NCBI GenBank assembly: GCA_963838835.1
Contig: CAWITA010000034.1
Coordinates: 3,980-67,979, forward strand
Direction: 5' to 3'
Length of the DNA stretch: 64,000 nt
DNA from: an uncultured Acidimicrobiaceae bacterium
GTDB taxonomy: Bacteria; Actinomycetota; Acidimicrobiia; Acidimicrobiales; RAAP-2
Shown here: positions 6,499 through 51,167 of the stretch, in pieces
Layout of the letters: the number at the start of each line of letters is the position of its first letter
Position numbering within the stretch: the first letter of the stretch is position 1
Position numbers and translations under genes: made by a program
The notes under the pieces: generated by a model
Told to the model about the DNA's origin: nothing
Database searches by the model: none
What the model saw: only the letters and a program-made list of their open reading frames with translations

Positions 6499-6562
6499 GG
6501 CGGAGGCGGTCCGCTCACAGGAGCGTGAATCTTGGCGAAGTGGCGAATTGGCGCAGCTGCAC
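6499..6562 (+). promoter_or_regulatory. Conserved 64-nt element upstream of pilin-like gene A1 (paralog at 17319-17382)
   Basis: A gap-free hand alignment to 17319-17382 gives 52/64 identical positions. It contains a 5-bp stem hairpin (6512-6525, CGCTC-ACAG-GAGCG). The three stem substitutions in the paralog all become G-U pairs. Confidence 0.45.
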
Positions 6563-6615
6563 ATTCCGGCAGCGATCAACGGGTGTTGCCGCGCGCCTGT
6601 GCGACAGCGGGGCGT

Positions 6616-8143
6616 GTGTCTCGTGCGCGCCGCCAGGCTGATCACACTGTACGGCGATCGAACGAATCGAACGCCGGATTCACGCTCATAGAACTGGTCA
6701 TCGTGACGGCGGTCCTGCCCATCGTCATCGGCGCCCTCGCGGTAGGCATCATCTCAGTCTTCTCGTTGCAGTCCAGCGTTTCGAATCGTCTGACCGATTC
6801 GGGTGACGCGGCAGGTGATCTCCATCGACTTCGACAGGGACGTCCAGAGCGCGATCTTGCTGACGACAAGCAGCAATCCACCAAGTCCAGGTCAATGTGG
6901 GACGGGTTTTGCGATCTTGGGACTGCAGCTCGGAAATTCCACAGAAGTCACCTACGCCGCAGCACAAAACGGAAACTCCTACACCCTGTCGAGAAACCTC
7001 TGCACAGTAAGCGGCGGGGCCACCACCCTCCAGAGTTCAGTCGTGGTCGGACGGGACCTGCCGGCATCCATACTCAGTGCGACTCCTCCGACCACCAGCA
7101 ACGTGGCGACATTTCCGGTGTCAATCCCGCAGTGTCTACAGACTCCTACTCCACAGATAGCCGCCTGCGACGCCATCGGACCCAGTTTCGCCTATCAGAC
7201 GAATTGGGTCAGCGCTCTCGGCATCACGGCAGTCAATTTCAGTACCGGACCGAACGGGGAACCCGGGAGCAAGTACTCGTACCAACTCACAGCGGTCCCG
7301 AATGCGGCCGTTGGCACGGCGAGTCCGCCACCGCTGACACCAGGCGTTGGAGGTGGCTTCGCCGTACCCGGCACCGGCACATACTCGAAGACCCTTTTCT
7401 TCGTGAGTTTCGCCAACTGGAACACGCAGACCAAGGCGAGTGGCGTCAGTTGTACCGGGACGGCGCTGCCCGTGGCGGCACCGATCGCCAACAGCCCCGA
7501 CACCCTGTCCTTTTGCCTGAACGTCAGCGCAACCGGAAGCAATGGTAAGACAATCACGGGTGTTACATCGGGGCCAGGGACAGCCTGCGGCGTGGCGGCC
7601 AATGTCGGCTACAACGACATCGCCGCGGTGGCGTTGCCCACCTACACCTGCCCCCCGGGCAGCGAGGCTTTTCTTGGCAACAACGGTTTCTACACCGGCG
7701 TACAGGGCGACCCCGCTCTCTACACACAGGCAGAGGGGTCGACCGCTGTCCTGACGTTCACGAACATCCAAGTTGTGAGCGCAGCCGGCCTGCCGGCCAC
7801 CGGCTGGAACCTGGTGACCGGCGACGCGGAGTCGACCGACGGCGGTGAAAGTTTGACATGGCAGTCTACTCCCTCATCGTCGGTCTTCACCCTGATTCCG
7901 AACAGCGTGAATTCCTCCACGGGCGCGGTCATCTCGGACATTGGCAACGCCTGTAACGGAGCGCCGCCCACGAACCTGGGAACGCTGACCGGACTTGGTA
8001 CGACGAAGGTCGAGTGCACCGCGTCCTACTCCCGGGACAAGACGGGCACGCCCATGCTCGAGGTAACAACACCTCAATCGCTGACCATGACCCTGGTGGG
8101 CACCGGCCTTCAGGCCGTCTTCCTCGGGATCCTCCTGTCATGA
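6616..8143 (+). CDS. Prepilin-type protein A1 (about 508 aa), frame broken by one extra G at 6811
   Basis: Class III signal ...SNAG|FTLIELVIVTAVLPIVIGALAV with Glu5. Tracks 6532..7548 (frame 1) and 6803..8143 (frame 2) join exactly if G6811 is removed: GAC GCG [G] CAG GTG gives ...DSGDAQVISIDF, matching paralog A2 ...DSADAQVVSVNY. The start at GTG 6616 is inferred from the A2 ATG position. Confidence 0.8.
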
Positions 8144-11100
8144 GACGGTCGAAGCCCGTGGAACAGAGCAAAGGTCCGAAGGGCCCGCGACCTTCTCAAG
8201 ATCGGCGACGATCGGAGGCCGGCGACACTCTCGTCGAGATCCTGATCGCACTTTCCATCATCGGGATAGCGGCCACTGCGATCCTCCTCGCGTTCGCCAC
8301 CACCATTTCCGGGTCGGGCGCTCACCGCAACGAGGTCACCCTCGACACTATGTTGAGGACGGCGTCAACCGAAGTCTCGGCTGCCATTGAGCAGCAGTCG
8401 ACCGCAACCTTCTCGAGCTGCGCGGGAGCGTACGTTTACCACACACCTGGCTCCATTCCCCTGCCGAATCCTGCCTACTCGGCCTACATCTCGGCGGTCC
8501 AGTACGAGAGCGCAAACCCGGCCGCCAGCGGAGACACCTACGCCCTGTCTGCTCCGCAGGCGCCGAGCACGACGTGCCCGACGGGATCCACGCCCAACCC
8601 GTACGCCGATTCGCCGCAGATGCTCACGATCTCGGTCACGTACACCGGCCAAGGCGGAGGAACCCCCTCAACGATCCAGACCGTCGTTGACGATCCGAAT
8701 TCACCTCCGAGCGCAACGTCGTGCACCTCTCCCTACCAATTGGTCTTTTTGGAACAACCAACCGACGGCCCCAACGGCTCTGCGGGGAGCGTGGGATCGG
8801 CGCTCTACCCGCCCGCAATCGTACAAATCGAGGACAAGAACGGTAACCCTTGCCAGAACGACTTCGCCACGGTCAAGCTGAGCATCACGGCCGGCACTGG
8901 GGCGAGTGGTGCGAGCTTGCAAAATTGCACGCCTTCGTCACAGTACGGGGAGACGATCTACGCGGGCTGCGAGATCAACGAGCCCAATCAGCCGGGGGAC
9001 GGCTACACGCTTACGGCGACCGACGCCGTTGATGGTCTCTCGGTGACCTCCAACCCCTTCGACGTCAGTGCCGGTGCCGCGGCCCAGCTCGTTTTCACGA
9101 CGGAACCAGGCAATGGGACCGGCGGAAGCGCGTTTGGGCAGCCGGTCGTGTGGATCGAGGACTCGCAGGGAGATCTCCTGACCAATGACACCAGCCCAGT
9201 GACGCTGGCCATCCAAACGAACCCCGGAGGCGGCACCCTGTCTGGCTGCAGCGAGACCACCGACGGAGGCATCGCGACGTTCACAGGCTGCACCATCAAC
9301 AAGGTCGGGACCGGCTACACCCTCGCGGCGACCGACGCGGTCGACAACCTGACGACACCGTCGGTGAGCAAACCGTTCAACATCACACCGGGTCAGCCGG
9401 TCGCGCTCACGTTCACCAATTCACCCGGGACGACTGTGGCAGGGGACCCGTTTGGGTCCCAACCCGTGGTCACACTGTTGGACGCAGGCGGCAACACCGC
9501 GAGCGTCGCGCCCGGCAGCACCGACACAGTGGGACTGGCGATCGGCACCAACGCCGGGGGCAGCGGAACTGCCCTGTCGGGCTGCACCGAGACGACGACG
9601 GCGGGCGTCGCCATCTTCGCCGGTTGCTCCATCAATAACCCCGGAAACGGCTACACGCTGGTGGCGACCGACACCACCGAGCCAACGAAAGTCCTGCCGG
9701 CGACCAGCAATGCGTTCAATATCGTGACTCCGACACTGACCTCGTTCAAGGTCGCTCCTGCAACCACGACCCCGACGGCCGGCACAGCCTTCAATGTCAC
9801 GATCACGGCCCTCGACCAGTCCGGCTACACCTTTACTGGCTTCACGGGGACGCAAAACATCACCTTCAGCGGCCCGGCGAACGCGCCCAACGGCACCGCG
9901 CCGACCTACCCCGGTTCGGTTACCTTCACTGGCGGCGTGGGCACGGCCTCCGTCACCCTGGTGGACGCCCAGACCACCACGCTGACGGCTGCTCAAGGCT
10001 TGGTCACCGGCACCTCGGGCAACATCACCGTGAGCAGCACCGGCACGGTCACCAAGTTCTCGCTCTCGACCCCGGCGCCGACGGCCGGGTCGCCCTTCAC
10101 CGAGACCATCACCGCCGTCGACACCTACGGCAACACGGTGACCGGCTACACCGGGACCAAGACCATGACCTTTAGCGGTCCGGCGAGCTCGCCCAACGGC
10201 ACCGCCCCGACCTACCCAACTCACCTGACCTTCACGGCCGGGTCGGCCACCGCGACCATCACCTTGACCGACGTCCAGACCACGACGCTCACCGCCTCGA
10301 CTACCACCGGCGGCACCGTCAGCGGCACCTCGGCCAGCTTCACGGTCGCCCCGGGAGCCGCCTCGACGTTCACCGTGTCGAACCCGAGCCCCCAGGTGGC
10401 GGGCACGGCGTTCAACGTCACGATCACCGCCGTCGACGCCGATGGCAACACGGCCACGGGCTACACCGGGACCAAGACGATGACCTGGAGCGGCCCGGCG
10501 AACTCGCCCAACGGCACCGCCCCGACCTACCCGGCCACGCTCAGTTTTGCCGCCGGATCGGCCACGGCCTCGGTGACCCTGGTCGACGCCCAGACCACGA
10601 CGCTCACCGCCAGCTCCACCACGACGGGCACGGTCAGCGGCACCTCGGGCAACATCGTGGTGAACGGGACCGGCACGGTCACCAAGTTCTCGCTCTCGAC
10701 CCCGGCGCCGACGGCCGGGTCGCCCTTCACCGAGACCATCACCGCCGTCGACACCTACGGCAACACGGTGACCGGCTACACCGGGACCAAGACCATGACC
10801 TTTAGCGGTCCGGCGAGCTCGCCCAACGGCACCGCCTCGACCTACCCGGCGGCGCTCACCTTCACGACCGGGTCGGCCACCGCGACCATCACGCTCACCG
10901 ACGTCCAGACCACGACGCTCACCGCCACGACTACCACCGGCGGCACCGTCAGCGGCACCTCGGCCAGCTTCACGGTGGCCCCGGGGGTCGCAATCAAGTT
11001 CACCGTGGCGAACCCGAGCCCCCAGGTGGCAGGCACGGCGTTCAACGTGACGATCACCGCCGTCGACGCCGATGGCAACACGGCCACGGGCTACACCGGG

Positions 11101-14100
11101 ACCAAGACGATGACCTGGAGCGGCCCGGCGAACTCGCCCAACGGCACCGCCCCGACCTACCCGGCCACGCTCAGTTTCGCCGCCGGATCGGCCACGGCCT
11201 CGGTCACCTTGGTCGACGTCCAGACCACGACGCTCACCGCCAGCTCCACCACGACGGGCACGGTCAGCGGCACCTCGGGCAACATCGTGGTCGGTCCGGG
11301 CTCCCCGCACAGCCTTACGGTGGCCAACCCAGGTCCCCAGGTGGCGGGCACGCCCTTCAACGTGACCATCACCGCTGTCGATGCCGACGGCAATACGGCA
11401 CCCACCTACACCGGATCTCAGACCATCACGTTCTCGGGTCCGTCGAACGCGCCCAACGGAACCGCCCCGACCTACCCGGCCAACGTCACCTTCACCGGAG
11501 GCGTGGGCACGGCCTCGATCACGTTGGTCGACGCCCAGACCACGACGTTGTCAGCCGCACAGGGCCTTCTTGTCCCCGTGCCGTCTCCTAGCTTCGTGGT
11601 CAGCAGCACCGGCACGGTCACCAAGTTCTCGCTCTCGACCCCGGCGCCGACGGCCGGGTCGCCCTTCACCGAGACCATCACCGCCGTCGACACCTACGGC
11701 AACACGGTGACCGGCTACACCGGGACCAAGACCATGACCTTTAGCGGTCCGGCGAGCTCGCCCAACGGCACCGCCCCGACCTACCCGGCGGCGCTCACCT
11801 TCACGACCGGGTCGGCCACCGCGACCATCACGCTCACCGACGTCCAGACCACGACGCTCACCGCCACGACTACCACCGGCGGCACCGTCAGCGGCACCTC
11901 GGCCAGCTTCACGGTGGCCCCGGGGGTCGCAATCAAGTTCACCGTGGCGAACCCGAGCCCCCAGGTGGCAGGCACGGCGTTCAACGTGACGATCACCGCC
12001 GTCGACGCCGATGGCAACACGGCCACGGGCTACACCGGGACCAAGACGATGACCTGGAGCGGCCCGGCGAACTCGCCCAACGGCACCGCCCCGACCTACC
12101 CGGCCACGCTCAGTTTCGCCGCCGGATCGGCCACGGCCTCGGTCACCTTGGTCGACGTCCAGACCACGACGCTCACCGCCAGCTCCACCACGACGGGCAC
12201 GGTCAGCGGCACCTCGGGCAACATCGTGGTCGGTCCGGGCTCCCCGCACAGCCTTACGGTGGCCAACCCAGGTCCCCAGGTGGCGGGCACGCCCTTCAAC
12301 GTGACCATCACCGCTGTCGATGCCGACGGCAATACGGCACCCACCTACACCGGATCTCAGACCATCACGTTCTCGGGTCCGTCGAACGCGCCCAACGGAA
12401 CCGCCCCGACCTACCCGGCCAACGTCACCTTCACCGGAGGCGTGGGCACGGCCTCGATCACGTTGGTCGACGCCCAGACCACGACGTTGTCAGCCGCACA
12501 GGGCCTTCTTGTCCCCGTGCCGTCTCCTAGCTTCGTGGTCAGCAGCACCGGCACGGTCACCAAGTTCTCGCTCTCGACCCCGGCGCCGACGGCCGGGTCG
12601 CCCTTCACCGAGACCATCACCGCCGTCGACACCTACGGCAACACGGTGACCGGCTACACCGGGACCAAGACCATGACCTTTAGCGGTCCGGCGAGCTCGC
12701 CCAACGGCACCGCCCCGACCTACCCGGCCACGCTCAGTTTTGCCGCCGGATCGGCCACGGCCTCGGTGACCCTGGTCGACGTCCAGACCACGACGCTCAC
12801 CGCCTCGACTACCACCGGCGGCACCGTCAGCGGCACCTCGGCCAGCTTCACGGTCGGCCCGGGAGCCGCCTCGACGTTCACCGTGTCGAACCCGAGCCCC
12901 CAGGTGGCGGGCACGGCGTTCAACGTCACGATCACCGCCGTCGACGCCGATGGCAACACGGCCACGGGCTACACCGGGACCAAGACGATGACCTGGAGCG
13001 GCCCGGCGAACTCGCCCAACGGCACCGCCCCGACCTACCCGGCCACGCTCAGTTTCGCCGCCGGATCGGCCACGGCCTCGGTGACCCTGGTCGACGCCCA
13101 GACCACGACGCTCACCGCCAGCTCCACCACGACGGGCACGGTCAGCGGCACCTCGGGCAACATCGTGGTGAACGGGACCGGCACGGTCACCAAGTTCTCG
13201 CTCTCGACCCCGGCGCCGACGGCCGGGTCGCCCTTCACCGAGACCATCACCGCCGTCGACACCTACGGCAACACGGTGACCGGCTACACCGGGACCAAGA
13301 CCATGACCTTTAGCGGTCCGGCGAGCTCGCCCAACGGCACCGCCCCGACCTACCCGGCGGCGCTCACCTTCACGACCGGGTCGGCCACCGCGACCATCAC
13401 GCTCACCGACGTCCAGACCACGACGCTCACCGCCACGACTACCACCGGCGGCACCGTCAGCGGCACCTCGGCCAGCTTCACGGTGGCCCCGGGGGTCGCA
13501 ATCAAGTTCACCGTGGCGAACCCGAGCCCCCAGGTGGCAGGCACGGCGTTCAACGTGACGATCACCGCCGTCGACGCCGATGGCAACACGGCCTCCACCT
13601 ACACCGGGACCCAGACCATGACCTTCTCCGGCCCGGCGAACTCGCCCAACGGCACCGCCCCGACCTACCCCGGTTCGGTCACCTTCACCGCCGGCGTGGG
13701 CACGGCCTCGATCAAGCTGGTCGACGTCCAGACCACCACATTGACCGCCGCACAGGGCTCGATCACCGGCACCTCGGGCAACATCGTGGTCGGCCCGGGA
13801 GCCGCCTCGACGTTCACCGTGTCGAACCCGAGCCCCCAGGTGGCGGGCACGGCGTTCAACGTGACCATCACCGCCTTCGACGCCGATGGCAACACGGCCA
13901 CGGGCTACACCGGGACTAAGACGATGACCTTCAGCGGCCCGGCGAACTCGCCCAACGGCACCGCCCCGACCTACCCGGCCACGCTCACCTTCACGGCCGG
14001 GTCGGCCACGGCCTCGATCAAGCTGGTCGACGCCCAGACCACGACGCTCACCGCCAGCTCCACCACGACGGGCACGGTCAGCGGCACCTCCGGCAACATC

Positions 14101-14755
14101 GTGGTGAACGGGACCGGCACGGTCACCAAGTTCTCGCTCTCGACCCCGGCGCCCACGGCCGGGTCGCCCTTCACCGAGACCATCACCGCCGTCGACACCT
14201 ACGGCAACACGGTGACCGGCTACACCGGGACCAAGACCATGACCTTTAGCGGTCCGGCGAGCTCGCCCAACGGCACCGCCCCGACCTACCCGGCGGCGCT
14301 CACCTTCACGACCGGGTCGGCCACCGCGACCATCACGCTCGACCGACGCCCAGACCACGACCCTCACCGCCTCGACTACCACCGGCGGCACCGTCAGCGG
14401 CACCTCGGCCAGCTTCACAGTGAGCACAGGAACCGCTACGTCGATTGCCGCAACCTCTGGCTCGGGGCAGTCAGTCCGTCACAACCGAGCGTTTCCGAAT
14501 CCTCTCGTCGCAACCGTGACCGACGCTTATGGGAACGACGTCTCAGGGGTGTCGGTCACATTCAGCGCGCCAACCACGGGTGCCTCGCTCACCTTTGCCG
14601 GTAGCGGTACCACCTATGTGACGACGACCACTGCGACCGGCGTGGCCACGTCCGCGCCCATGACCGCCAACGGCACCGCGGGGGCTAATTACGTCGTGAC
14701 AGCTTCGATTACCGGCACTGGTACAGAGACGACTTACACGGAGACCAACACATGA
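8140..14755 (+). CDS. Giant prepilin-type protein B1 (about 2204 aa) with about 19 Ig-like modules; frame broken by one extra G at 14341
   Basis: ATG 8140 overlaps the A1 stop (ATGA). The 28-aa basic leader ends ...RRRSEAG|DTLVEILIALSIIGIAATAILLAF (Glu5 present). Three modules of about 105 aa (QLVF..P..G..FG.QPVV...D..GN type) are followed by about 15 modules of about 104 aa (GTAFNVTITAVDADGNTATGYTGTKTMT.SGPANSPNGTAPTYP type). At 14341 the sequence ATCACGCTC[G]ACCGAC shifts into the frame of track ORF 14420..14755, which supplies the last module and the stop. Confidence 0.85.
10672..12549 (+). repeat. Two tandem near-identical 939-bp units (three Ig-like modules each) inside B1; a third partial copy runs to about 12720
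   Basis: Antisense track ORFs recur identically at an offset of 939 (10842/11781, 11157/12096, 11381/12320, 11472/12411). I saw one mismatch, TCG at 10838-10840 versus CCG at 11777-11779. A further copy of part of the unit lies at an offset of 2508 (10527/13035). Confidence 0.9.
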
Positions 14756-16326
14756 TCGTCAGTGTCAGACGTTGGCTGAAGCGCGAAGCCTCATGCGTCG
14801 CGTCGCGCCGCCGCGACGAAGCCGGTGCCTCCCTTGTGCTGGCTCTGCTGTTCCTCGTGGTGATCGGCCTGATCGTGGGTGGCTTGGCGTCGTGGACCGC
14901 CAACGATCTCTCTGATGCGGTGGTGTTCCAGAATGCCCGGTCCGCGGAATTCGCCCTCAACAGCGCGACGCAGTTGGCGGTCCAGAACATCCGGTACGTG
15001 CCCCTGATCAGTTCGAACTCTGTTTTAGGGACCGACGAGACCTTGAACGCCAGCCCCCCTGAATACTGTTGGGATCCTGGCCCTGCTGGCCCGGGCGGGA
15101 ATGCTGGCACGGAACTCACCACCCAAGGCGACACCGTCGCGGTCTGGTGCAGCACGCAATGGAATCCCGCATCGACCGCGACGCGCAAGGTGACCATCGA
15201 CGCGTGCCTTATTTCCCCAAGCGTGTCGATCACCACCTCGAATTGGCAAGGTCTGTCGACCGGCTGTGCACAAAGCCCGAACCTCCAGACGGTGGTGTCG
15301 TTCGACGACTACCAGTCCAATCTGAGCTCTACGAGCCCTTGTACGTCGACGTGTGGAACAGGTATGACGATCGACAGTTCGAGCGCGGGTCCGACGAACC
15401 CGACCGTGACGGGACTCTCGACCGCACCCGTGACGTCACCGCCTAGTGGACTGGTGACAGGTGGGACAGCTTTAACGATTACAGGGTCGGGCTTCGTCAA
15501 CGGTTTGACGACGGTATTCCTCGTTGACCCGTTGGTAGCCAATCTGGTCATCACGATCCCGTCCAGCAGTGTGACGTTCAATTCCTCGACTTCGATCTCG
15601 GTCACGACGCCTGGCGTGACCACCTCAGCGAACTACGACGTCGCGGTCTCGACACCCAACGGCAACAGCCTCGACGGCCCCCAGTTCGCATACCAGCCGG
15701 TAATTCCGACGATCAGTAGCATGACGCCGACTACTGGATCTGCCAACGGCGGAACCGCGCTGACCATCGACGGGACGGGCTTCCTTGCCAACGGCAACGG
15801 TGACCTCACGAAGGTGACTTTCACGGACACCGCGAACTCGGCCATCACGGCGACGGCACCGGACCTGTCCGTCAATTCGACGGGCACCGTCATCACCGCC
15901 ACGACACCGTCAATCACGACTGAAGCGACCTACTACGTCACAGTGACAACCACACCTGGCGGCACCACCGCGCAAAGCGCAAACTTCGAATTCACCTTCC
16001 AGCCGTACTACCCGGTGGCTGACTCCATCACTCCGGCGTCGGGTAGCAGCGGGACTGTGACCGTCACCGGCTTGGGGTTTCTGAGTGGGGGAACGACGGT
16101 CACCCTCATCCCGACAGCCGGTGGAAACGGTTTCAGCCTGACCAACGTCTCGGTGTCGTCATCGACGAACTTGACCGCGCAAATTCCAACAGGCGAGCCC
16201 GTTGCAACGTACTACGTCTCAATCACCACGACATGGAACGGGACGCAATACCAGAGTTGTAACTCCAACGGAAGCGGCGGTATACCGAGCTGCTCGTCAG
16301 AGGGAGCTCCCACTTACCAGTACTGA
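14752..16326 (+). CDS. PilX/GspK-like minor-pilin-type protein C1 with three IPT/TIG domains (524 aa)
   Basis: ATG 14752 overlaps the B1 stop (ATGA). The N-terminus ...RRRDEAG|ASLVLALLFLVVIGLIVGGLASWTANDL...ARSAEFALNSA resembles PilX_N and has no Glu5. Three TIG-like units are PSGLVTGGTALTITGSGF, TGSANGGTALTIDGTGF and SGSSGTVTVTGLGF. Confidence 0.8.
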   Translation: MIVSVRRWLKREASCVASRRRDEAGASLVLALLFLVVIGLIVGGLASWTANDLSDAVVFQNARSAEFALNSATQLAVQNIRYVPLISSNSVLGTDETLNASPPEYCWDPGPAGPGGNAGTELTTQGDTVAVWCSTQWNPASTATRKVTIDACLISPSVSITTSNWQGLSTGCAQSPNLQTVVSFDDYQSNLSSTSPCTSTCGTGMTIDSSSAGPTNPTVTGLSTAPVTSPPSGLVTGGTALTITGSGFVNGLTTVFLVDPLVANLVITIPSSSVTFNSSTSISVTTPGVTTSANYDVAVSTPNGNSLDGPQFAYQPVIPTISSMTPTTGSANGGTALTIDGTGFLANGNGDLTKVTFTDTANSAITATAPDLSVNSTGTVITATTPSITTEATYYVTVTTTPGGTTAQSANFEFTFQPYYPVADSITPASGSSGTVTVTGLGFLSGGTTVTLIPTAGGNGFSLTNVSVSSSTNLTAQIPTGEPVATYYVSITTTWNGTQYQSCNSNGSGGIPSCSSEGAPTYQY

Positions 16327-16339
16327 GAGCACCTCGATA

Positions 16340-16825
16340 ATGCCCAGCACGTCTCGTACAATCAACCGCGCTTTCTTGGGCGGTCTCACCTCTATCGTCC
16401 TAGCTCTTGGACTGACGGCGTGTGCCGTATCTAGCGGCAACGACGGCAGTCTGGCTGGGACAAGCGGCGCTTCGAGTCGCTGCCTTGGTACGTACACATT
16501 CCGGAGCTCCGATCAGCATGTGAATCTCCCCGGCCTTCCCAATCTGGCCGACAACTCCATGAACTCCACCGTGACGCCTACCCCCGTCAACGCTACCGGG
16601 TGCGCGAGCACCGACCCGAATGTCAGGTCTTGCATCTACGTCGCGGCCGACCAACTGCGAGTCGTCGTCCGGAATGGACATGTGACAATCAGTAATCCGA
16701 CCGGTCACCCGCTGCTCGCAACTGGTCGCGCGAAAGGCGACGAGCTTGACCTCATTTGGATGACCTACGGCGTTGGTTCTCGCTCCGTCGTATTCGACTT
16801 TCGATGCGGAGAAGTCGTGCGCTAA
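16340..16825 (+). CDS. Putative lipoprotein (161 aa), present only after cassette 1
   Basis: Signal peptide with lipobox: MPSTSRTINRAFLGGLTSIVLALGLTAC|AVSSGN. ATG lies at 16340, 14 nt after the C1 stop. No recognisable family. Confidence 0.6.
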   Translation: MPSTSRTINRAFLGGLTSIVLALGLTACAVSSGNDGSLAGTSGASSRCLGTYTFRSSDQHVNLPGLPNLADNSMNSTVTPTPVNATGCASTDPNVRSCIYVAADQLRVVVRNGHVTISNPTGHPLLATGRAKGDELDLIWMTYGVGSRSVVFDFRCGEVVR

Positions 16826-17318: not shown

Positions 17319-17382
17319 GGCGGAGGCGGTCTGTTCACGGGAGTGTGAGTTTTGGCGAAACGGCATATTGGCGAGGCTGCAC
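17319..17382 (+). promoter_or_regulatory. Conserved 64-nt element upstream of pilin-like gene A2 (paralog of 6499-6562)
   Basis: 52/64 identity to 6499-6562 without gaps. The equivalent hairpin lies at 17332-17345 with G-U pairs. Confidence 0.45.
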
Positions 17383-17429
17383 GGTCGGGAACCGGCCAAC
17401 GCGGGTTGCGTCGCGCCTTCGCGCCTGTC

Positions 17430-18944
17430 ATGCGGCGTGCCCGCGTGGCACGCCCCGACCGTGCCACCAGGCCCCAGGCGGACGCGTCGAACGCGGGGTT
17501 CACACTCATCGAGCTGGTGATCGTGACGGCGATCATGCCAATGGTGATCGGTGCCCTCGCGGTGGGCATTCTCTCGGTTTTCAATCTGCAGTCGAGTGTG
17601 TCGAATCGCCTCACTGACTCCGCCGACGCGCAGGTGGTCTCGGTCAATTACCAGAACGACGTCGAAGGCGCGGCATACATCACCACAGCCAGTGCCCCGG
17701 TGAGCGTGCCGGGTTCTCCGGCGAACACGCCAGCGCCCTGCGGATCGGGCCACCAGATTCTGGGTCTGGAGCTCGGCAACGGGACTGTGATCTCGTACAC
17801 CGTGAGCCAAGCCTCGAGCGGAACCGCTTACGACCTCTATCGGAACGTCTGCAGTGGCGGAAACGCCCCCAGCTCGACCGTCGTTTCGCGTGACAGCCCT
17901 GCCTCGATGCTCAACCCGGCCACTCCGCCGGTGACGGTCACGTGCACCAACCCGGCGACGTCGACGACCTGCAACCTTGTGGCACCGAGCAATGCGCCCG
18001 CCTACTCGCTGGGCTGGCAACCGACACTCGGGGTCACCGGGGTCACCTTCAAGACAACGGAAAAGCAGAGCAACTACAGCTACCAACTGGTTGCTGTGCC
18101 GACAGCAGCAGCAAGCTCTACGCAGCTGGCTCAAGTCTCGAGCTCGTCGACAGGATGTGGCTTTGCCCTGCCTTCCACCGGTACGTACGCGGGCACCCTG
18201 TGTTTCGTGAACTTCGCACCGTGGAACACCCAGACAGCCGCGAAGAACATCACGTGTAACGCGGCAGGCGCTGGGTTCTCGACGCCGATAGCCATGTCGG
18301 CCGCCCTCGCCAACACTCCCTTCACCCTCGACTTCTGCGTCAGCGTGAGCGCCACCACCAGCGGAGGACAGGCCATCACCGGTCAAACGTCGGCAGGCTC
18401 AGCTTGCGGAGTCGCCGCCAGGAACGGCTATGACGACATCACCGCGGTCCCGCTGCCAACGTATACATGTCCTCCCGGTAGTGAGGCGTTCCTGGGCAAC
18501 AACGGCTTCTATACGGGTGTGCCCGGCGATCCGGCGCTCTACACGGTGGACCAGGGTTCAACCGCGACCGTTGCCATCACGAACATCCAGTTGTTGAGCT
18601 CGAACGGTGTTGCCACGGGCTGGCAGCTGGCAACGGGTGACGCCGAGTCGACTGACGCGGGTGAATCGATCACGTGGACGTCCAACCAGAACCTAAACCT
18701 CATTCCAAATAGCCCGACGTCGCCGGTGGGCAACGCGTGCATGAGCACCGGATCGTACGCCCCCCCGAGCTACAACACGAACTACCTGACCGGAATCGGC
18801 ACCAAGACGGTCGAATGCTCGGCCACCGCGAGCTTCGACAAAACGGGCATGGCCATGCTTGCGGCCAGTACACCTTCGTCGCTCACGGTCACCATGGTCG
18901 GCGGGGGGCTTCAGGCCATGTTCATGGGAGTTCTGCTGCCATGA
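17430..18944 (+). CDS. Prepilin-type protein A2 (504 aa), intact paralog of A1
   Basis: ATG 17430 gives a 23-aa basic leader MRRARVARPDRATRPQADASNAG|FTLIELVIVTAIMPMVIGALAV with Glu5. The body is collinear with A1, sharing CPPGSEAFLGNNGFYTGV.GDPALYT, TGDAESTD.GESITW and a hydrophobic C-terminus GGLQAMFMGVLLP. Confidence 0.85.
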   Translation: MRRARVARPDRATRPQADASNAGFTLIELVIVTAIMPMVIGALAVGILSVFNLQSSVSNRLTDSADAQVVSVNYQNDVEGAAYITTASAPVSVPGSPANTPAPCGSGHQILGLELGNGTVISYTVSQASSGTAYDLYRNVCSGGNAPSSTVVSRDSPASMLNPATPPVTVTCTNPATSTTCNLVAPSNAPAYSLGWQPTLGVTGVTFKTTEKQSNYSYQLVAVPTAAASSTQLAQVSSSSTGCGFALPSTGTYAGTLCFVNFAPWNTQTAAKNITCNAAGAGFSTPIAMSAALANTPFTLDFCVSVSATTSGGQAITGQTSAGSACGVAARNGYDDITAVPLPTYTCPPGSEAFLGNNGFYTGVPGDPALYTVDQGSTATVAITNIQLLSSNGVATGWQLATGDAESTDAGESITWTSNQNLNLIPNSPTSPVGNACMSTGSYAPPSYNTNYLTGIGTKTVECSATASFDKTGMAMLAASTPSSLTVTMVGGGLQAMFMGVLLP

Positions 18945-21900
18945 GGCGCCGGCGAGCTGACGTTGATCGTTTGACCGGGCCGCCCCAGAACGAGGACAGG
19001 CGCCGCTCGGAGGCAGGCGACACCCTGGTCGAGATCCTGATCGCCCTCGCGGTGATCGGCATCGCGGCGACGGCTCTCCTCCTCGCCTTTGCCACGTCCA
19101 TCTCGGGCTCGGGAGAGCACCGCAACCTGGCGACCTTCGACACCATGCTGAGGACGGCGTCCGCGGAGGCCTCCTCACTCATTCAGCAGCAGTCACTCGC
19201 GGACTTCACCAGCTGTTCGGGGGCGTACCTGGTGAACCAGCAGGGCATCCCTCTCCCGAACGCCGCAGCCCCCGCGGCCAACCCCTACTCCGCCAGCATC
19301 ACCGGTGTGCAGTACTGGAATTCCGCCGCCAACCCGCCCGCTTTCACCACATTGCCCTGGACTCCCACCACCACGTGCCCGCCCGGAGTGACCGGAGGAG
19401 GTCCCCAGCTACTCACGGTGACGGTCTCGTTCCACGGCGGCAGCGGTAACACGAGCTCCTCCCTGACGACCGCGGTCGACAACCCCATTCCTCCGCCGCC
19501 CGCATCGAGTTGCGTCGGCGGCGCCACCCAATTGGTTTGGGTGTCGCAACCCGGCAACGGAAGTGCCGGATCGGCGCTCTACCCAGCACCGACATTGGTG
19601 CTCGAAAACTCGACCGGCTGCATCGAGCAGACCGATGCCTCCAGCGTCACCCTCAGCGTCGCGTCGGGTCCGGGCACGCTGACGAACTGCGTGCCCAATC
19701 TGCTCTACGGCGAGACTACGTTCCAGGATTGCACGCTCGGCACCCCCGGGACCTACACGCTGGGCGCAACCGATGCCACCGATGGCATCACGAAGCCCGT
19801 ATTGAGCAACTCCTTCGTCATTTCCCAGGGTGCTCCCGCCAAACTGGTCTTCTCCACGCAACCCGGAAACGGGACCGGTGGGTCTCCGCTCAGTACGCAG
19901 CCCGTCGTGTCCATCGAGGACGCGAACGGCAACCTCGTTCCGGGCGACAGCAGCATGGTCACGCTGGCGATCGGGACGAACCCGGGTGGCGGGACTCTCT
20001 CTGGATGCACCGGTACTTCGAACGGGAATGGCATCGTCTCCTTCGCCGGGTGCAAGATCGACAAAATTGGGACCGGGTACACCCTGACCGCGACCGACGC
20101 CGCGGACAACCTGACGACAGCGTCGGCCCCGAGTAATCCGTTCAACATCACGCCCGGCCCGGCGTACCAGCTCGCATTCACGACGTCGCCAGGGACAAGC
20201 GTGGCTCAGGACCCGTTCGGGACCCAGCCCGCCGTCACCCTGCTGGATGCGGGGGGCAACGTCGCCACTGGAAGCACCGATGCCGTCAAACTGGCAATCG
20301 GCAACAACCCAGGCGCGGGCACTCTCTCCGGTTGCTCAGAGACGACGAGCGCCGGAGTGGCCAACTTCAGCGGTTGCTCCATCAATAATCCTGGAACCGG
20401 CTACACGCTCGTAGCGACCGACACGACCAACCCTGCGGTGCTGTCCTCAACGAGCGGCGCGTTCAATGTCGTGGCACAGGCGCTGACCTCGTTCCAGGTC
20501 TCTAACCCGGGAACCCAGACGGCCGGGCACCAGTTCAGCGTGACGATCACGGCCGAAGACCAGGCTGGGTTCAAGTTCACCGGCTACACGGGCGCCCAGA
20601 CGCTCACATTCACCGGCCCGTTGAGCTCACCCAATCCTGTGACCGCCCCCGTCTACCCCTCTGGTGGCACGGTCACCTTCTCGGGTGGCACGGGTACGGC
20701 ATTGGTCACCCTCTACAACGCCTCGAACACGACCAACCTGACGGTCGCCCAGGGTGGAGCGACCGGCAGCACGGGCAACTTCATCGTGCACCCGGCCGGC
20801 GCCTCGAGCTTCACCGTGACCGGTTACCCCAGCCCGACCACGGCCGGGGCGTCCCACAACGTGACGGTCACCGCCTATGACACCTATGGCAACGTGGCCA
20901 CCGCCTACGCCGGCACCGTCCACTTCACGAGCAGCGACGCCCAGGCCACGCTGCCGGCCAACGCCACCCTCACCAACGGGACCGGCACCTTCTCGGCCAC
21001 GCTCAAGACGGCGGGGACCCAGTCGATCACGGCCACCGACACGGTGACGAGCTCCATCACCGGCAGTCAAAGCGGCATCACGGTGCACCCGGCCGGTGCC
21101 TCGAGCTTCACCGTCGCCGGCTTCACCAGCCCGACCACGGCCGGCGCGTCCCACAACGTGACGGTCACCGCCTATGACACCTATGGCAACGTGGCCACCG
21201 CCTACGCCGGCACCGTCCACTTCACCAGCAGCGACGCCCAGGCCACGCTGCCGGCCAACGCCACTCTCACCAACGGGACCGGGACCTTCTCGGCCACGCT
21301 CAAGACGGCGGGGACCCAGTCGATCACCGCCACCGACACGGTGACGAGCACGATCAACGGTTCGCAGTCCGGCATCACGGTGAACCCGGCCGGCGCGAGC
21401 AAGCTGGGCTTCGTCCAGCAGCCCACCACGACGCAGGCCGGAGGTGTCATCACCCCGTCGGTGACCGTCCAGGTCCAAGACACCTATGGCAACGCGGTGG
21501 CCGACTCGGGGGCGACGGTGACCATGAGCGTCAACACCGGACCCGGGTCCTTCACCGGTGGTTCGACGACGAGTGCCACGACGAGCGCAGCCGGGCTGGC
21601 CACGTTCAACAACCTGGTCCTCGACACCTCGGGCAGCTACACGCTCCAGGCGGCCTCGAGCCCCCTCACCTCGGTCACCTCGAACTCCGTGACGGTGAAC
21701 CCGGCCCCGGCGACCCACTTCACCGTGACCGGTTACCCCAGCCCGACCACGGCCGGCGCGTCCCACAACGTCACGGTCACCGCCTATGACACCTATGGCA
21801 ACGTGGCCACCGCCTACGCCGGCACCGTCCACTTCACCAGCAGCGACGCCCAGGCCACGCTGCCGGCCAACGCCACCCTCACCAACGGGACCGGCACCTT

Positions 21901-24900
21901 CTCGGCCACGCTCAAGACGGCGGGGACCCAGTCGATCACGCGCCACCGACACGGTGACGAGCACGATCAACGGTTCGCAGTCGCGGCATCACGGTGAACC
22001 CGGCCGGCGCGAGCAAGCTGGGCTTCGTCCAGCAGCCCACCACGACGCAGGCCGGAGGTGTCATCACCCCGTCGGTGACCGTCCAGGTCCAAGACACCTA
22101 CGGCAACGCGGTGGCCGACTCGGGGGCGACGGTGACCATGAGCGTCAACACCGGACCCGGGTCCTTCACCGGTGGTTCGACGACGAGTGCCACGACGAGC
22201 GCAGCCGGGCTGGCCACGTTCAACAACCTGGTCCTCGACACCTCGGGCAGCTACACGCTCCAGGCGGCCTCGAGCCCCCTGTTCGGCACGTCGGGCAGCT
22301 TCACCGTGAACCCGGCCCCGGCGACCCACTTCACCGTGACCGGTTACCCCAGCCCGACCACGGCCGGGGCGTCCCACAACGTCACGGTCACCGCCTATGA
22401 CACCTATGGCAACGTGGCCACCGCCTACAGCCGGCACCGTCCACTTCACGAGCAGCGACGCCCAGGCCACGCTGCCGGCCAACGCCACCCTCACCAACGG
22501 GACCGGCACCTTCTCGGCCACGCTCAAGACGGCGGGGACCCAGTCGATCACCGCCACCGACACGGTGACGAGCACGATCAACGGCATCGCAGCGGGCATC
22601 ACGGTGAACCCGGCCGGCGCCTCGAGCTTCACCGTCGCCGGTTACCCCAGCCCGACCACGGCCGGAGGGGCCCACAACTTCACGGTCACCGCCTATGACG
22701 CCTACGGCAACGTGGCCACCGGCTACGCCGGCACCGTCCACTTCACCAGCAGCGACGCCCAGGCCACGCTGCCGGCCAACGCCACCCTCACCAACGGGAC
22801 CGGCACCTTCTCGGCCACGCTCAAGACGGTCGGGACCCAGTCGATCACGGCCACCGACACGGTGACGAGCACCATCACCGGCGCCCAGTCCATCTCGGTC
22901 CTCTCGTCGACGGCGACCCACTTGACCGTCAGCGGCTTCACCAGCCCGACCACGGCCGGCGCGCCCCACAACGTCACCGTGACCGCCTACGACGCCTACG
23001 GCAACGTGGCCACCGGCTACACGGGCACCGTCCACTTCACGAGCAGCGACGCCCAGGCCACCTTGCCCGCCAACTACACCTTCACCAGCGGCGTCAGCGC
23101 GGACAACGGGGTCCACACCTTCACCAACGGGGCCACGCTCGCGACGGCGGGGACCCAGTCGATCACCGCCACCGACACGGTGACCAGCTCCATCACCGGC
23201 GTCCAAAGCGGCATCACCGTGCACCCGGCCGGCGCCTCGAGCTTCACCGTGACCGGTTACCCCAGCCCGACCACGGCCGGGGCGTCCCACAACGTGACGG
23301 TCACCGCCTATGACACCTACGGCAACGTGGCCACCGCCTACAGCCGGCACCGTCCACTTCACGAGCAGCGACGCCCAGGCCACGCTGCCGGCCAACGCCA
23401 CCCTCACCAACGGGACCGGCACCTTCTCGGCCACGCTCAAGACGGCGGGGACCCAGTCGATCACCGCCACCGACACGGTGACGAGCTCCATCACCGGTGT
23501 CGCAGTCCGGCATCACGGTGAACCCGGCCGGCGCCTCGAGCTTCAACGTCACCGGCTTCACCAGCCCGACCACGGCCGGCGGGGCCCACAACTTCACGGT
23601 CACCGCCGACGACGCCTACGGCAACGTGGCCACCGGCTACGCCGGCACCGTCCACTTCACGAGCAGCGACGCCCAGGCCACGCTGCCGGCCAACGCCACC
23701 CTCACCAACGGGACCGGCACCTTCTCGGCCACGCTCGAGACGGCGGGGACCCAGTCGATCACGGCCACCGACACGGTGACGAGCTCCATCACCGGCAGTC
23801 AAACCGGCATCACGGTGAACCCGTCGACGGCGACCCACTTGACCGTCGGCGGCTTACCCCAACCCGACCACGGCCGGGGCGTCCCACAACGTGACGGTGA
23901 CCGCCGACGACGCCTACGGCAACGTGGCCACCGGCTACGCCGGCACCGTCCACTTCACGAGCAGCGACGCCCAGGCCACGCTGCCGGCCAACGCCACCCT
24001 CACCAATGGGACCGGCACCTTCTCGGCCACGCTCAAGACGGCGGGGACCCAGTCGATCACGGCCACCGACACGGTGACGAGCTCCATCACCGGCAGTCAA
24101 AGCGGCATCACGGTGCACCCGGCCGGCGCCTCGAGCTTCACCGTCGCCGGCTTCACCAGCCCGACCACGGCCGGCGCGTCCCACAACGTGACGGTCACCG
24201 CCTATGACACCTATGGCAACGTGGCCACCGCCTACGCCGGCACCGTCCACTTCACGAGCAGCGACGCCCAGGCCACGCTGCCGGCCAACGCCACTCTCAC
24301 CAACGGGACCGGCACCTTCTCGGCCACGCTCAAGACGGCGGGGACCCAGTCGATCACCGCCACCGACACGGTGACGAGCACGATCAACGGTTCGCAGTCC
24401 GGCATCACGGTGAACCCGGCCGGCGCGAGCAAGCTGGGCTTCGTCCAGCAGCCCACCACGACGCAGGCCGGAGGTGTCATCACCCCGTCGGTGACCGTCC
24501 AGGTCCAAGACACCTATGGCAACGCGGTGGCCGACTCGGGGGCGACGGTGACCATGAGCGTCAACACCGGACCCGGGTCCTTCACCGGTGGTTCGACGAC
24601 GAGTGCCACGACGAGCGCAGCCGGGCTGGCCACGTTCAACAACCTGGTCCTCGACACCTCGGGCAGCTACACGCTCCAGGCGGCCTCGAGCCCCCTCACC
24701 TCGGTCACCTCGAACTCCGTGACGGTGAACCCGGCCCCGGCGACCCACTTCACCGTGACCGGTTACCCCAGCCCGACCACGGCCGGGGCGTCCCACAACG
24801 TCACGGTCACCGCCTATGACACCTATGGCAACGTGGCCACCGCCTACGCCGGCACCGTCCACTTCACCAGCAGCGACGCCCAGGCCACGCTGCCGGCCAA

Positions 24901-26644
24901 CGCCACCCTCACCAACGGGACCGGCACCTTCTCGGCCACGCTCAAGACGGCGGGGACCCAGTCGATCACCGCCACCGACACGGTGACGAGCACGATCAAC
25001 GGTTCGCAGTCCGGCATCACCGTGAACCCGGCCGGCGCCTCGAGCTTCACCGTCGCCGGTTACCCCAGCCCGACCACGGCCGGAGGGGCCCACAACGTCA
25101 CGGTCACCGCCTATGACGCCTACGGCAACGTGGCCACCGGCTACGCCGGCACCGTCCACTTCACGAGCAGCGACGCCCAGGCCACGCTGCCGGCCAACGC
25201 CACCCTCACCAACGGGACCGGCACCTTCTCGGCCACGCTCAAGACGGCCGGGACCCAGTCGATCACGGCCACCGACACGGTGACGAGCACCATCACCGGC
25301 GCCCAGTCCATCTCGGTCCTCTCGTCGACGGCGACCCACTTGACCGTCAGCGGCTTCACCAGCCCGACCACGGCCGGCGCGCCCCATACCGTCACCGTGA
25401 CCGCCTACGACGCCTACGGCAACGTGGCCACCGGCTACACGGGCACCGTCCACTTCACGAGCAGCGACGCCCAGGCCACCTTGCCCGCCAACTACACCTT
25501 CACCAGCGGCGTCAGCGCGGACAACGGGGTCCACACCTTCACCAACGGGGCCACGCTCGCGACGGCGGGGACCCAGTCGATCACCGCCACCGACACGGTG
25601 ACCAGCTCCATCACCGGCGTCCAAAGCGGCATCACGGTGCACCCGGCCGGCGCCTCGAGCTTCACCGTGACCGGTTACCCCAGCCCGACCACGGCCGGGG
25701 CGTCCCACAACGTGACGGTCACCGCCTATGACACCTACGGCAACGTGGCCACCGCCTACGCCGGCACCGTCCACTTCACGAGCAGCGACGCCCAGGCCAC
25801 GCTGCCGGCCAACGCCACCCTCACCAACGGGACCGGCACCTTCTCGGCCACGCTCAAGACGGCGGGGACCCAGTCGATCACCGCCACCGACACGGTGACG
25901 AGCTCCATCACCGGTTCGCAGTCCGGCATCACGGTGAACCCGGCCGGTGCCTCGAGCTTCAACGTCGCCGGTTTCACCAGCCCGACCACGGCCGGAGGGG
26001 CCCACAACTTCACGGTCACCGCCGACGACGCCTACGGCAACGTGGCCACCGGCTACGCCGGCACCGTCCACTTCACGAGCAGCGACGCCCAGGCCACGCT
26101 GCCGGCCAACGCCACCCTCACCAACGGGACCGGCACCTTCTCGGCCACGCTCGCGACGGCGGGGACCCAGTCGATCACGGCCACCGACACGGTGACGAGC
26201 TCCATCACCGGCAGTCAAACCGGCATCACGGTGAACCCGGGGGCAGTCGCGGGCATCGGCTTGACCAATATCACCAACCAGCCGATCCCGGCCCTGACCT
26301 GCACCGGTGCCGTCGGCAGCATCACCTGCACGTCGACGGGTGAAGGCAACCTCAACGGCAGCGGCAACGCCTCGGCTCGGACGGCGACGGCCAACATCGA
26401 GTTGCAGGACGAGTACGGCAACGCAGTCACCAACACTGGGGCCAGCATCTCCATCGCCCTGTCGGTCGGTACAACGGCCGGCACGGTCAATGGGGGAACG
26501 ACGGCAACGTTGACGATACCGAATGGTTCGTCGAAGTCGTCGACCCAGTTCACCTTGGTTCGTACCAGCGGCTCGAATAAGACCGCCACCATGACCGCCT
26601 CGGTAAGCGGGACCACCGAGCTCACCGTCACACTGTCGAGTTGA
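18941..26644 (+). CDS. Giant prepilin-type protein B2 (about 2565 aa) with about 23 Ig-like modules; six single-base frame breaks between 21939 and 23862
   Basis: ATG 18941 overlaps the A2 stop (ATGA). The 26-aa leader ends ...DRRRSEAG|DTLVEILIALAVIGIAATALLLAF. The first ~500 residues are collinear with B1. One B1-type module follows, then about 18 modules of about 100 aa (GASHNVTVTAYDTYGNVATAYAGTVHFTSSDAQATLPANATLTNGTGTFSATLKTAGTQSITATD type, with three interspersed KLGFVQQPTTTQAGG type). Track ORFs 18737, 21994, 22397, 23310, 23497 and 23891 join when single extra bases are removed (see findings). Confidence 0.8.
20789..26220 (+). repeat. Array of about 300-bp Ig-like module repeats in B2, with kb-scale near-identical blocks at offsets of 3030 and 2418 bp
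   Basis: Antisense track ORFs recur identically at 21202/24232 (offset 3030) and nearly identically at 22723/25141 (offset 2418). The segment around 21082 matches the one around 24112 with isolated mismatches. Confidence 0.9.
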
Positions 26645-32410: not shown

Positions 32411-32508
32411 CGGACGGGCCACCCCCACCTCGGGTCGATCGAGCAGGACGACCTTACCGGTCGCGGCTCGTGGGATCCCCGAGGCCACCTCGCCCCCTCG
32501 CGGCCTGG

Positions 32509-34162: not shown

Positions 34163-34270
34163 GACCACACTCCGCACGGTACAGAAGGGGTGCGCGCAGC
34201 ACCCGCCGGACCTGCGCCTATCGTGGCCGACCGAGGCCGCGGGCGCCCATCGTGGGGGAGGAGCAGGCAG

Positions 34271-35701: not shown

Positions 35702-36047
35702 GGAGCTCCTCGAGGCATACGCCGAATGGCGCAGCCGCAGCAATGCCAACTCCCGCCTGACCAAGATGGTGCAGGGCTGGGACCGCGTCATCCACTTCAC
35801 CACGACCGATACCGCGCAGGGCTACACGATGCGCGTGGTGGACCAGCAGCTCTCCGAGCTCGCGGTCGGCCACGAAGATCGGCCCGACGTCGTGGTGACC
35901 GGGAGCAGCGAGGACTTCTGCGACATGTTCTGGGGAGACCTCAACCCTTCGGAGAAGTACATGTCGGGTGAGATCACGTTGTTGGGCTCCCAGCAGGATG
36001 TCATGCGGATCGACGCCATCTCTCTGGTGGCCTTCCTCGACAGCTGA
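35688..36047 (+). CDS. SCP2 sterol-carrier-like domain protein (119 aa)
   Basis: ...GYTMRVVDQQLSELAVGHEDRPDVVVTGSSEDFCDMFWGDLNPSEKYMSGEITLLGSQQDVMRI, a typical SCP2 C-terminal pattern. The TTG start overlaps the amine oxidase end by 14 nt, so the start is uncertain. Confidence 0.65.
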   Translation: MASTEELLEAYAEWRSRSNANSRLTKMVQGWDRVIHFTTTDTAQGYTMRVVDQQLSELAVGHEDRPDVVVTGSSEDFCDMFWGDLNPSEKYMSGEITLLGSQQDVMRIDAISLVAFLDS

Positions 36048-50991: not shown

Positions 50992-51167
50992 CGGGGCGCG
51001 GCCGCGGCGCGGGAGGGGAACGGCCAGGGGTCGGGTCGGGCTCAGGAGGCTTCAGGGTAGCGAGCCGGCGCTGCGCTGAGGTGGCGGGCGGATTCTGAGA
51101 CAATGGCGGGTCGGCCGACACGCAGGCGGCGGTGCCGACGCGAGCGCAACCAGGAGGGATGGGCCCG

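Follow-up and report, generated by a model that had tools for sequence, protein, structure and literature searches.

Modular pilins are well documented in type IV pili: a survey counted more than 1200 of them in 264 architectures, and its most extreme multi-domain case has 860 residues (PMC8179133). The modular pilins PilA-B-C of Streptococcus sanguinis form a tip complex (PMC8179133, PMC10191384), and in Myxococcus xanthus four minor-pilin clusters provide interchangeable tips for the Kil (Tad-like) pilus (Herrou et al. 2025, PMC12075869). In tip-located minor-pilin complexes, the capping member is generally recognized by its lack of Glu5 (PMC10191384). Here we analyzed a stretch of 64,000 nucleotides (hereafter, the window) from an uncultured Acidimicrobiaceae bacterium (GenBank assembly GCA_963838835.1, contig CAWITA010000034.1), in which two tandem three-gene cassettes, A-B-C, lie on the + strand between 6.5 and 28.5 kb. 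Their middle genes, B1 and B2, probably encode giant modular minor pilins that belong to an Acidimicrobiia type IV pilus system. Each combines a pilin-sized head of about 170 residues with 19 (B1) or 23 (B2) immunoglobulin (Ig)-like modules, which places it within the definition of a modular pilin (Raynaud et al. 2021), and A, B and C together form a co-encoded minor-pilin set with one Glu5-less member. The design is thus already known from modular pilins, and the size is a striking extreme. A sequence-only reading of the same DNA had contrasted these proteins with known modular pilins of several hundred residues, a contrast that the 860-residue extreme multi-domain case of the survey makes a fair one (PMC8179133).

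The best reading of the locus is a tip complex of three minor-pilin subunits in which B would carry the stalk, and the whole is probably a very long adhesin displayed on a type IV pilus. The features of the two cassettes are listed below, a slash in a motif marking the predicted cleavage site.

6532..8143, + strand: A1, modular pilin-like gene of cassette 1, motif SNAG/FTLIELV with the Gly codon at 6676; start codon uncertain and coordinates approximate
8140..14755, + strand: B1, giant modular pilin-like gene, 2204 residues once an inserted G at 14341 is removed
8140..8307, + strand: class III signal peptide of B1, leader M1-G28, predicted cleavage G28/D29 (8221-8226), Glu33 at +5
8224..8739, + strand: pilin-sized head of B1, about the first 172 mature residues; Cys94 and Cys146 are conserved
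8740..9732, + strand: three proximal Ig-like modules of B1 of the 'QLVFTTQPG...' type, residues 201-531, from hidden Markov model (HMM) domain matches
9742..14431, + strand: main array of B1, 15 Ig-like modules of about 105 residues, 315-bp period, residues 535-2097
14432..14752, + strand: distal C-terminal module of B1, unlike the repeats, with a weak Big_1 match
14752..16326, + strand: C1, pilin-like gene without Glu5 (RDEAG/ASLVL...), three IPT/TIG domains, its start overlapping the B1 stop (ATGA)
17352..18944, + strand: A2, intact modular pilin-like gene of cassette 2 (SNAG/FTLIELV), with a CshA_NR2-like C-terminal domain
18941..26644, + strand: B2, second giant modular pilin-like gene, 2565 residues and 23 modules once six inserted bases are removed
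26641..28467, + strand: C2, pilin-like gene without Glu5, with IPT/TIG domains, its start overlapping the B2 stop

Stop and start codons overlap as ATGA at the A1/B1, B1/C1 and A2/B2 junctions, and the B2/C2 junction reads TTGATGATG. These overlaps point to translational coupling of A, B and C. A small open reading frame (ORF; 16340-16825, + strand) with a lipoprotein-type signal (...LALGLTAC, resembling a lipobox) and no family match separates the two cassettes.

The N-terminus of B resembles a prepilin. Translated from the ATG at 8140, B1 reads MRRSKPVEQSKGPKGPRPSQDRRRSEAG/DTLVEILIALSIIGIAATAILLAF, with Gly28 at -1, Asp29 at +1 and Glu33 at +5; B2, from 18941, carries the same motif (Gly26, Asp27, Glu31). 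Translation of both genes therefore bears out the Gly(-1), the Glu(+5) and the hydrophobic alpha1N helix that the sequence-only reading had described, and the helix of B1 reaches about residue 56. The leader ...DRRRSEAG/D is common to B1 and B2 and is long, at about 26-28 residues, provided that the ATG at 8140 is the true start. A twin-arginine (Tat) signal was considered for its arginine run and rejected, as RRRSEAG does not fit RRxFLK and the downstream helix contains Glu5 and aligns with pilins. Across 30 homologues the motif G-D-T-L-x-E is invariant, as are all of the motif residues G, D, T, L, E, L and I. The Pfam N_methyl profile (PF07963) gave residues 24-49 of B1 a score of 21.9 bits (gathering score 21.2) when the query was 520 residues long, and there were weak GspH and GspI matches at the B N-terminus (E ~3e-4), far under the family cut-offs. 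A profile built from 30 N-terminal modules of the family and compared with all PDB sequences gave six matches, type IV pilins exclusively (best E = 0.004); the alignment was in register, with G-1 on G-1 and the family Asp on Phe1. In the head that follows, Cys94 (8419-8421) and Cys146 (8575-8577) of B1 correspond to one cysteine that is invariant across the family and a second that is nearly so. Judged by the curated profiles alone, the pilin signal is borderline; the PDB comparison and the invariance of the motif are stronger evidence.

Gene context appears to decide most of the pilin question. We scanned one genome per species and obtained 35 related loci, nearly all in metagenome-assembled genomes (MAGs) of Acidimicrobiaceae or Acidimicrobiales and mostly from one Danish long-read soil survey. 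The A-B-C trio is kept in 29-34 of the 35, and the A family in 34. At about 10 loci the trio adjoins PilB (T2SSE + MshEN, >400 bits), PilC (T2SSF), a PilT-like ATPase and a small major pilin, the last of canonical sequence (G/FTLIELLIVI..., 111-176 residues; TIGR02532 33 bits). On the closed chromosome OY969891.1 (locus L005) the order is pilD, a DUF429 gene, a pilT-like gene, the major pilin gene, pilC, pilB, A, a B of 2455 residues, and C; the pilD product, checked at this locus only, comprises A24_N_bact and Peptidase_A24. Tandem cassettes also occur in other genomes. In the window and about nine syntenic loci, the cassettes lie apart from the machinery, downstream of dehydrogenase-NYN-FabA-nuclease genes; the first gene of the window, which has a G+C content of about 68%, is the fused E2/E1 2-oxoglutarate dehydrogenase gene (KGD) of the actinobacterial type. 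This context, chiefly, together with the sequence of the N-terminus, upholds the pilin interpretation of that end of B, with cleavage as a prediction.

We also noted a DUF429 gene next to a pilT-like gene in two independent loci (L005, 2093-2887, - strand; L026, 14574-15281, + strand), which in L005 separates pilD from pilT. Its product may have an accessory role.

The partner genes are pilin-like in their own right. A2 scored 17.5 bits with N_methyl, 17.3 with TIGR02532 (cut-off 16.3) and 25.3 with CshA_NR2 (gathering score 24). Members of the A family always start G/FTL(I/V)EL, and the CshA_NR2-like adhesin domain was seen in the window. In every member of the C family Gly(-1) is followed by Ala or Ser, and position +5 is occupied by Leu and never by Glu; the C proteins bear IPT/TIG domains. 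As C lacks Glu5, it would be the capping subunit of the trio.

These loci share much with the S. sanguinis PilABC system. Both have a host from a Gram-positive phylum (presumably monoderm) and a pilT-containing locus of the type IVa pilus (T4aP) kind, both encode three minor pilins together in place of PilHIJK, one of them without Glu5, and both graft non-pilus domains of adhesin character onto a small pilin module. The S. sanguinis PilB (vWA) and PilC (lectin) subunits are, however, bimodular and far smaller than the B family, with its 2200-3240 residues and 19 to about 30 Ig-like modules. Here, moreover, all three subunits are modular, Asp takes the place of the hydrophobic +1 residue, no vWA or lectin effector is recognizable, and the cassettes form tandem duplicates that are often not linked to the machinery. 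The Kil tip complexes likewise come as several paralogous three-gene clusters per genome, with a predicted alpha1N heterotrimer, a large backbone subunit, and variable C-terminal domains exposed at the pilus end. Kil differs in that it is a Tad (T4c) pilus made by a diderm predator from Flp-type pilins, and its far smaller subunits have no long Ig array, whereas B-family loci are of the T4aP type with PilB, PilC and PilT. Similarity extends to GspI-J-K and to PilH/I/J/K (FimU-PilVWX), with or without PilY1, which are also co-encoded minor pilins with a Glu5-less cap and are thought to prime the filament and sit at its tip. The tip of the diderm T4aP carries a large adhesin, PilY1, as a separate protein, whereas the pilins of these loci themselves carry the adhesin-like mass as a fusion, and apart from the weak GspH/GspI matches we detected no sequence membership in these families.

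Long tandem arrays of bacterial Ig-like domains that act as a spacer projecting a distal module are also known from the Big_1 arrays of invasin and intimin. Further giant stalk adhesins include SiiE, Bap/Lap-type proteins and the S-layer SbsC-like Ig chains. Invasin and intimin are anchored by LysM and an outer-membrane beta-barrel and end in a C-type-lectin-like tip, whereas B has an N-terminal pilin module; unlike the giant adhesins, B has no type I secretion system (T1SS) retention module, LPXTG motif, S-layer homology (SLH) domain or C-terminal sorting signal. B does not belong to the invasin/intimin family and has the repeat type alone in common with it (by Pfam for B2, by fold for B1). 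Full-text literature searches on giant or large pilins and on Acidimicrobiia pili returned no account of the B family or of pili in Acidimicrobiia.

To delimit the modules of the stalk we used HMMs built from the repeats themselves. B1 has 3 proximal, 15 array and 1 distal module, with no interspersed modules of the proximal type, for a total of 19; B2 has 3 proximal, 16 array, 3 interspersed proximal-type and 1 distal, for a total of 23. The estimate of about 19-23 modules made from the sequence alone agrees with these counts. The B1 array is arranged as 939-bp super-repeats of three modules and contains a 952-bp exact direct repeat at a 939-bp offset, beginning at 10838 (span 10838-12728), which suggests either a very recent three-module duplication or uncertainty in the copy number of the assembly; the total for B1 may thus be wrong by one block of three modules. 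Modules of B2 exceed the Pfam gathering scores of Invasin_D3 (58.5 bits) and Big_1 (54.6 bits). Those of the B1 array have no Pfam match and are 43-50% identical to the B2 modules. One B1 module modeled with AlphaFold2 (AF2) is a nine-strand beta-sandwich with a predicted local distance difference test (pLDDT) score of 90.7, and it matched by fold the Ig-like domains of glycoside hydrolase family 2 (GH2) enzymes, the SbsC/SbsB S-layer proteins, filamin and intimin D00-D0 (probability 1.0, template modeling (TM) score 0.5-0.68).

Each proximal module of B1 (8740-9732) contains a pair of cysteines; with those of the head, they are consistent with disulfide-stabilized extracytoplasmic domains. 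The equivalent of the proximal module in locus L026 passes the NCBIfam model CoaZ_rpt_PGGG (33.9 bits), and proteins of other bacteria that are giant but not pilins often contain modules of this type as well. By its sequence, the B family looks like a pilin head joined to a widely used Ig-repeat stalk. At the far end, the distal modules of B1 and B2 differ: that of B1 matches Big_1 at 19.7 bits, under the cut-off, and the B2 type is kept in the homologues P0058 and P0085. Neither B1 nor B2 has an LPXTG/sortase signal or other C-terminal anchor at its C-terminus. NCBIfam returned no family for the stalk, for either distal module or for the head of A, and Pfam and NCBIfam together found nothing at either end of the B proteins beyond the N-terminal pilin module.

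From these features we propose the following mechanism. B would be inserted into the membrane through its class III signal (Sec and signal recognition particle), and a PilD-type prepilin peptidase would cut it after Gly(-1). The alpha1N helix and small head would bring B into an A-B-C helix bundle with C on top, A being the pilin of the trio with a CshA-like adhesin domain. This complex would prime a filament of the small major pilin and end at the filament tip, with the major pilin and the machinery encoded outside the window. From the tip would project the B stalk, a flexible and unbranched chain of 19-23 modules with a distal module of another type at its end. With 3.5-4.5 nm for each Ig-like module, its length would come to about 70-100 nm, in line with the tens of nanometers suggested by the sequence-only reading. 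It may lengthen the reach of the pilus tip, or bridge the cell wall before extension, for adhesion; the Big_1-type modules, the CshA-like domain in A and the known precedents suggest an adhesive role. The two tandem cassettes, with their differing distal modules, would provide alternative tips of different specificity, for which the four Kil tip clusters of Myxococcus are a precedent (PMC12075869).

The first mature residue of B sets the family apart. Asp occupies +1 in B1, B2 and all 35 loci, with Glu or Ser in more distant relatives; the A proteins and major pilins of the same loci all have Phe. The earlier remark that Asp(+1) is unusual for a pilin holds. In the Pseudomonas pilin mutagenesis of Strom and Lory, substitution at +1 was reportedly tolerated for cleavage and affected methylation, so Asp(+1) need not block processing. 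The role of an acidic N-terminus beside the salt bridge between Glu5 and the N-terminal amine is the most interesting question that the B family raises. Tentatively, the Asp(+1) giant pilins might form a distinct functional class of type IV filament subunit, in which a 70-120 nm Ig tether hangs on a single pilin anchor and the invariant acidic residue and constant RRSEAG leader dictate special processing or docking (for example, no N-methylation and a fixed place under the Glu5-less cap). The motor would then extend and retract a long adhesin line in place of a bare tip, and the tether would be rapidly remodeled as modules are gained and lost and would be swapped between tandem cassettes.

Several observations weigh against a pilin assignment for B1 and B2. 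The hydrophobic +1 residue of pilins, typically Phe or Met and subject to N-methylation, is replaced by the atypical Asp. The PF07963 score of B1 falls to 21.1 bits with an 843-residue query, and TIGR02532 gives 14.9 against a cut-off of 16.3, so that the N_methyl test proposed by the sequence-only reading gave scores on either side of the threshold with one profile and below the cut-off with the other. The proposed structure predictions also divided: a single B1 module folded confidently, and the AF2 model of B1 residues 1-337 was poor (pLDDT 59.6), with helices at 27-56 and 60-85, a small three-strand sheet and a beta domain. Foldseek searches of PDB with this low-confidence head model found no pilin and nothing below 1e-3; the model gave weak Fab-type Ig matches, which are uninformative on the pilin head. 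The 64-kb window encodes no PilB, PilC, PilD, PilT or small major pilin, and the distal end shows no recognizable ligand-binding domain (lectin, vWA). We infer rather than show that B is cleaved, enters a complex and lies at the tip. Finally, both giant genes are frame-broken in the assembly as given, and indels are about four times denser in A1, B1 and B2 than elsewhere in the window, which could mean decay.

Some of these observations would also fit a protein whose prepilin-type signal serves export and anchoring alone. B would then stay unpolymerized in the cytoplasmic membrane, cleaved or not, with its Ig stalk crossing the wall and its distal module at the surface. Archaeal non-pilin proteins with class III signals offer a likeness, the profile scores are no better than threshold, and a length of 70-100 nm would lie within the range of known cell-surface stalk adhesins. 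The invariant Asp(+1), unlike the Phe of the canonical pilins at these loci (A and the major pilin), and the placement of the cassettes by the 2-oxoglutarate dehydrogenase gene, apart from the machinery, in the window and about nine syntenic loci point the same way. We nevertheless consider this explanation unlikely. The strict conservation of Gly(-1), Thr2, Leu3 and, within a membrane helix, Glu(+5) is hard to reconcile with a plain anchor, and a pilin-sized head with conserved cysteines is retained between helix and stalk. Moreover, B is always flanked by and coupled to two other pilin-like genes, one of the Glu5-less cap type, and in other genomes the trio sits inside complete pilus loci.

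The reading of B1 and B2 as giant modular minor pilins depends on frames that are interrupted in the assembly. As assembled, B1 is an ORF at 8140-14604 (2154 residues, with a tail out of frame after about 14341) and a second ORF at 14420-14755 that holds the true C-terminus, and B2 halts at 21997 (1018 residues) and runs on in four more frame segments. By comparison with paralogous repeat copies, we located one single-base insertion in B1, at 14341 (CTCGACC, against CTCACC in three other copies), and six in B2, at about 21940, 21983, 22429, 23342, 23499 and 23856. Deleting these bases yields 2204 and 2565 codons with zero internal stops. The intervals 8140-14755 and 18941-26644 are thus giant genes after repair, with lengths as the sequence-only reading gave them (about 2200 and 2565), but they are not single intact ORFs, and those lengths had been reached by silently reading across seven frameshifts. 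The reading frame of A1 is likewise broken near 6811 by one extra G, from DNA comparison with A2. All eight breaks in A1, B1 and B2 are +1 insertions (five G, three A), none lies within a homopolymer, and one inserted A is common to two B2 repeat copies, in the context TAC[A]GCCGGC. Programmed frameshifting at the seven B1 and B2 breaks was rejected: they have no common slippery motif, their contexts differ, and unrelated genes are broken too.

Frame breaks are not confined to the cassettes. Three non-repetitive genes of the window are also frame-split (31013-35803, - strand; 48840-50391, + strand; 51132-53254, + strand), and matches to single profiles fall on separate ORFs: UvrD-helicase at positions 1-98 and 174-265, MFS_1 at 2-183 and 199-345, and Acyl_transf_3 at 2-197 and 204-301, followed in the last case by SGNH on a third ORF. 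The assembly is thus indel-prone across the whole window. P0001, which covers the B1 5' end in another public assembly and is 100% identical to it over 217 residues, breaks elsewhere, and B homologues are often fragmented in Flye-type long-read MAGs of the same project and uninterrupted on megahit- or SPAdes-named contigs. Because other window genes are frame-broken too, the seven frameshifts in B1 and B2 are most likely consensus errors of long-read assembly. The type of insertion shared by the eight breaks looks like a systematic consensus artefact of repeats. We leave a small probability that some of the insertions are genuine, because they are about four times denser in the repeats and none is in a homopolymer.

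If the insertions in A1, B1 and B2 were real, the genes would be decaying pseudogenes in this genome and would make only truncated products (1018 residues for B2; 2154 with a scrambled tail for B1). Eight insertions are packed into about 16 kb of A1, B1 and B2, with zero in about 11 kb of KGD, NYN, FabA, the Exo_endo_phos gene, C1, A2 and C2; their placement outside homopolymers and the same inserted A in two B2 copies could be read in the same way. Decay is nonetheless improbable. After repair, about 4800 codons are free of stops and other lesions, unlike long-standing pseudogenes, and the eight events, all +1 insertions, resemble a systematic consensus artefact in repeats. In addition, frame splits hit unrelated window genes, the independent assembly of the B1 5' end has a different break site, and B is fragmented in many sister long-read MAGs and in no short-read contig.

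The size of the B proteins recurs in homologues, whose lengths we took from uninterrupted ORFs downstream of the GDTL motif.

L036: 3211 residues
L009: 2545 residues
L018: 2511 residues
L005: 2455 residues, closed chromosome
L030: 2305 residues
L013: 2042 residues, close relative of B2
L015: 1948 residues
L033: 1649 residues, SPAdes-named contig
L014: 1329 residues, megahit-named contig

An exhaustive search with representatives added full-length members of 3240, 2684, 2542, 2133, 2042, 1751 and 1597 residues, one database member being annotated merely as 'hypothetical protein'. Shorter members exist as well: several have 500-930 residues (L026, L020 and L031 about 500-545), and L028 (499-1443) encodes an apparently bare pilin of about 190 residues without Ig modules. 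The check on homologue lengths proposed by the sequence-only reading thus found a shared leader motif, uninterrupted members of 1329-3240 residues, and shorter ones down to about 190. This range, from about 190 to 3240 residues, suggests that modules were added step by step to an ordinary minor pilin.

A 217-residue N-terminal query of a catalogue of 5.8 billion proteins had returned 18 matches (P0001-P0018), all fragments of 125-346 residues, many of which end in out-of-frame Arg/Pro-rich tails. The reading that these matches represent small homologues was refuted, as they are fragments and the genome scan and exhaustive search gave giants. In long-read MAGs, B genes are systematically broken up and gene calling conceals the full proteins, so they drop out of protein catalogues.

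The sequence-only reading had named expansion of a much shorter repeat gene in the assembly as the finding that would overturn it; long uninterrupted homologues were found in independent assemblies, probably short-read ones included, and therefore expansion is not the explanation. Arrays with a 952-bp exact duplicate and many modules 90-100% identical mis-assemble readily, but such an origin of the great length is very improbable, given that copies range from 60 to 100% identity, that three module types follow one another in an ordered, non-periodic succession, and that uninterrupted homologues of 1300-3240 residues occur in more than 15 independent genomes or assemblies, among them two proteins from short JGI/IMG contigs (2684 and 1751 residues) and one of 2042 residues that is identical in ENA and Logan assemblies.

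Elsewhere in the window, an ORF with a TIR_2 domain (60502-61494, + strand; 86 bits) is overlapped by a WD40-repeat ORF of 722 residues (61205-63373, + strand). The two may be one frame-broken TIR-WD40 gene, as in bacterial defense and signaling proteins.

Described modular pilins are bimodular and a few hundred residues long, and explain how simple pili acquire functions. If confirmed, a pilin of 2000-3200 residues would mean that a pilin module can carry, and the machinery prime on, a cargo 10-20 times its own size, and that a flexible fiber of about 100 nm can serve as the 'tip' of a pilus. The significance of pilin N-terminal methylation has been called a mystery in a recent review (Pelicic 2023, PMC10191384), and the invariant Asp(+1) offers a clean handle on the roles of the first residue and of methylation in pilin processing and docking. 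The analysis also offers an initial look at the type IV pilus loci of Acidimicrobiia, a soil class that is widespread and has hardly any cultured members.

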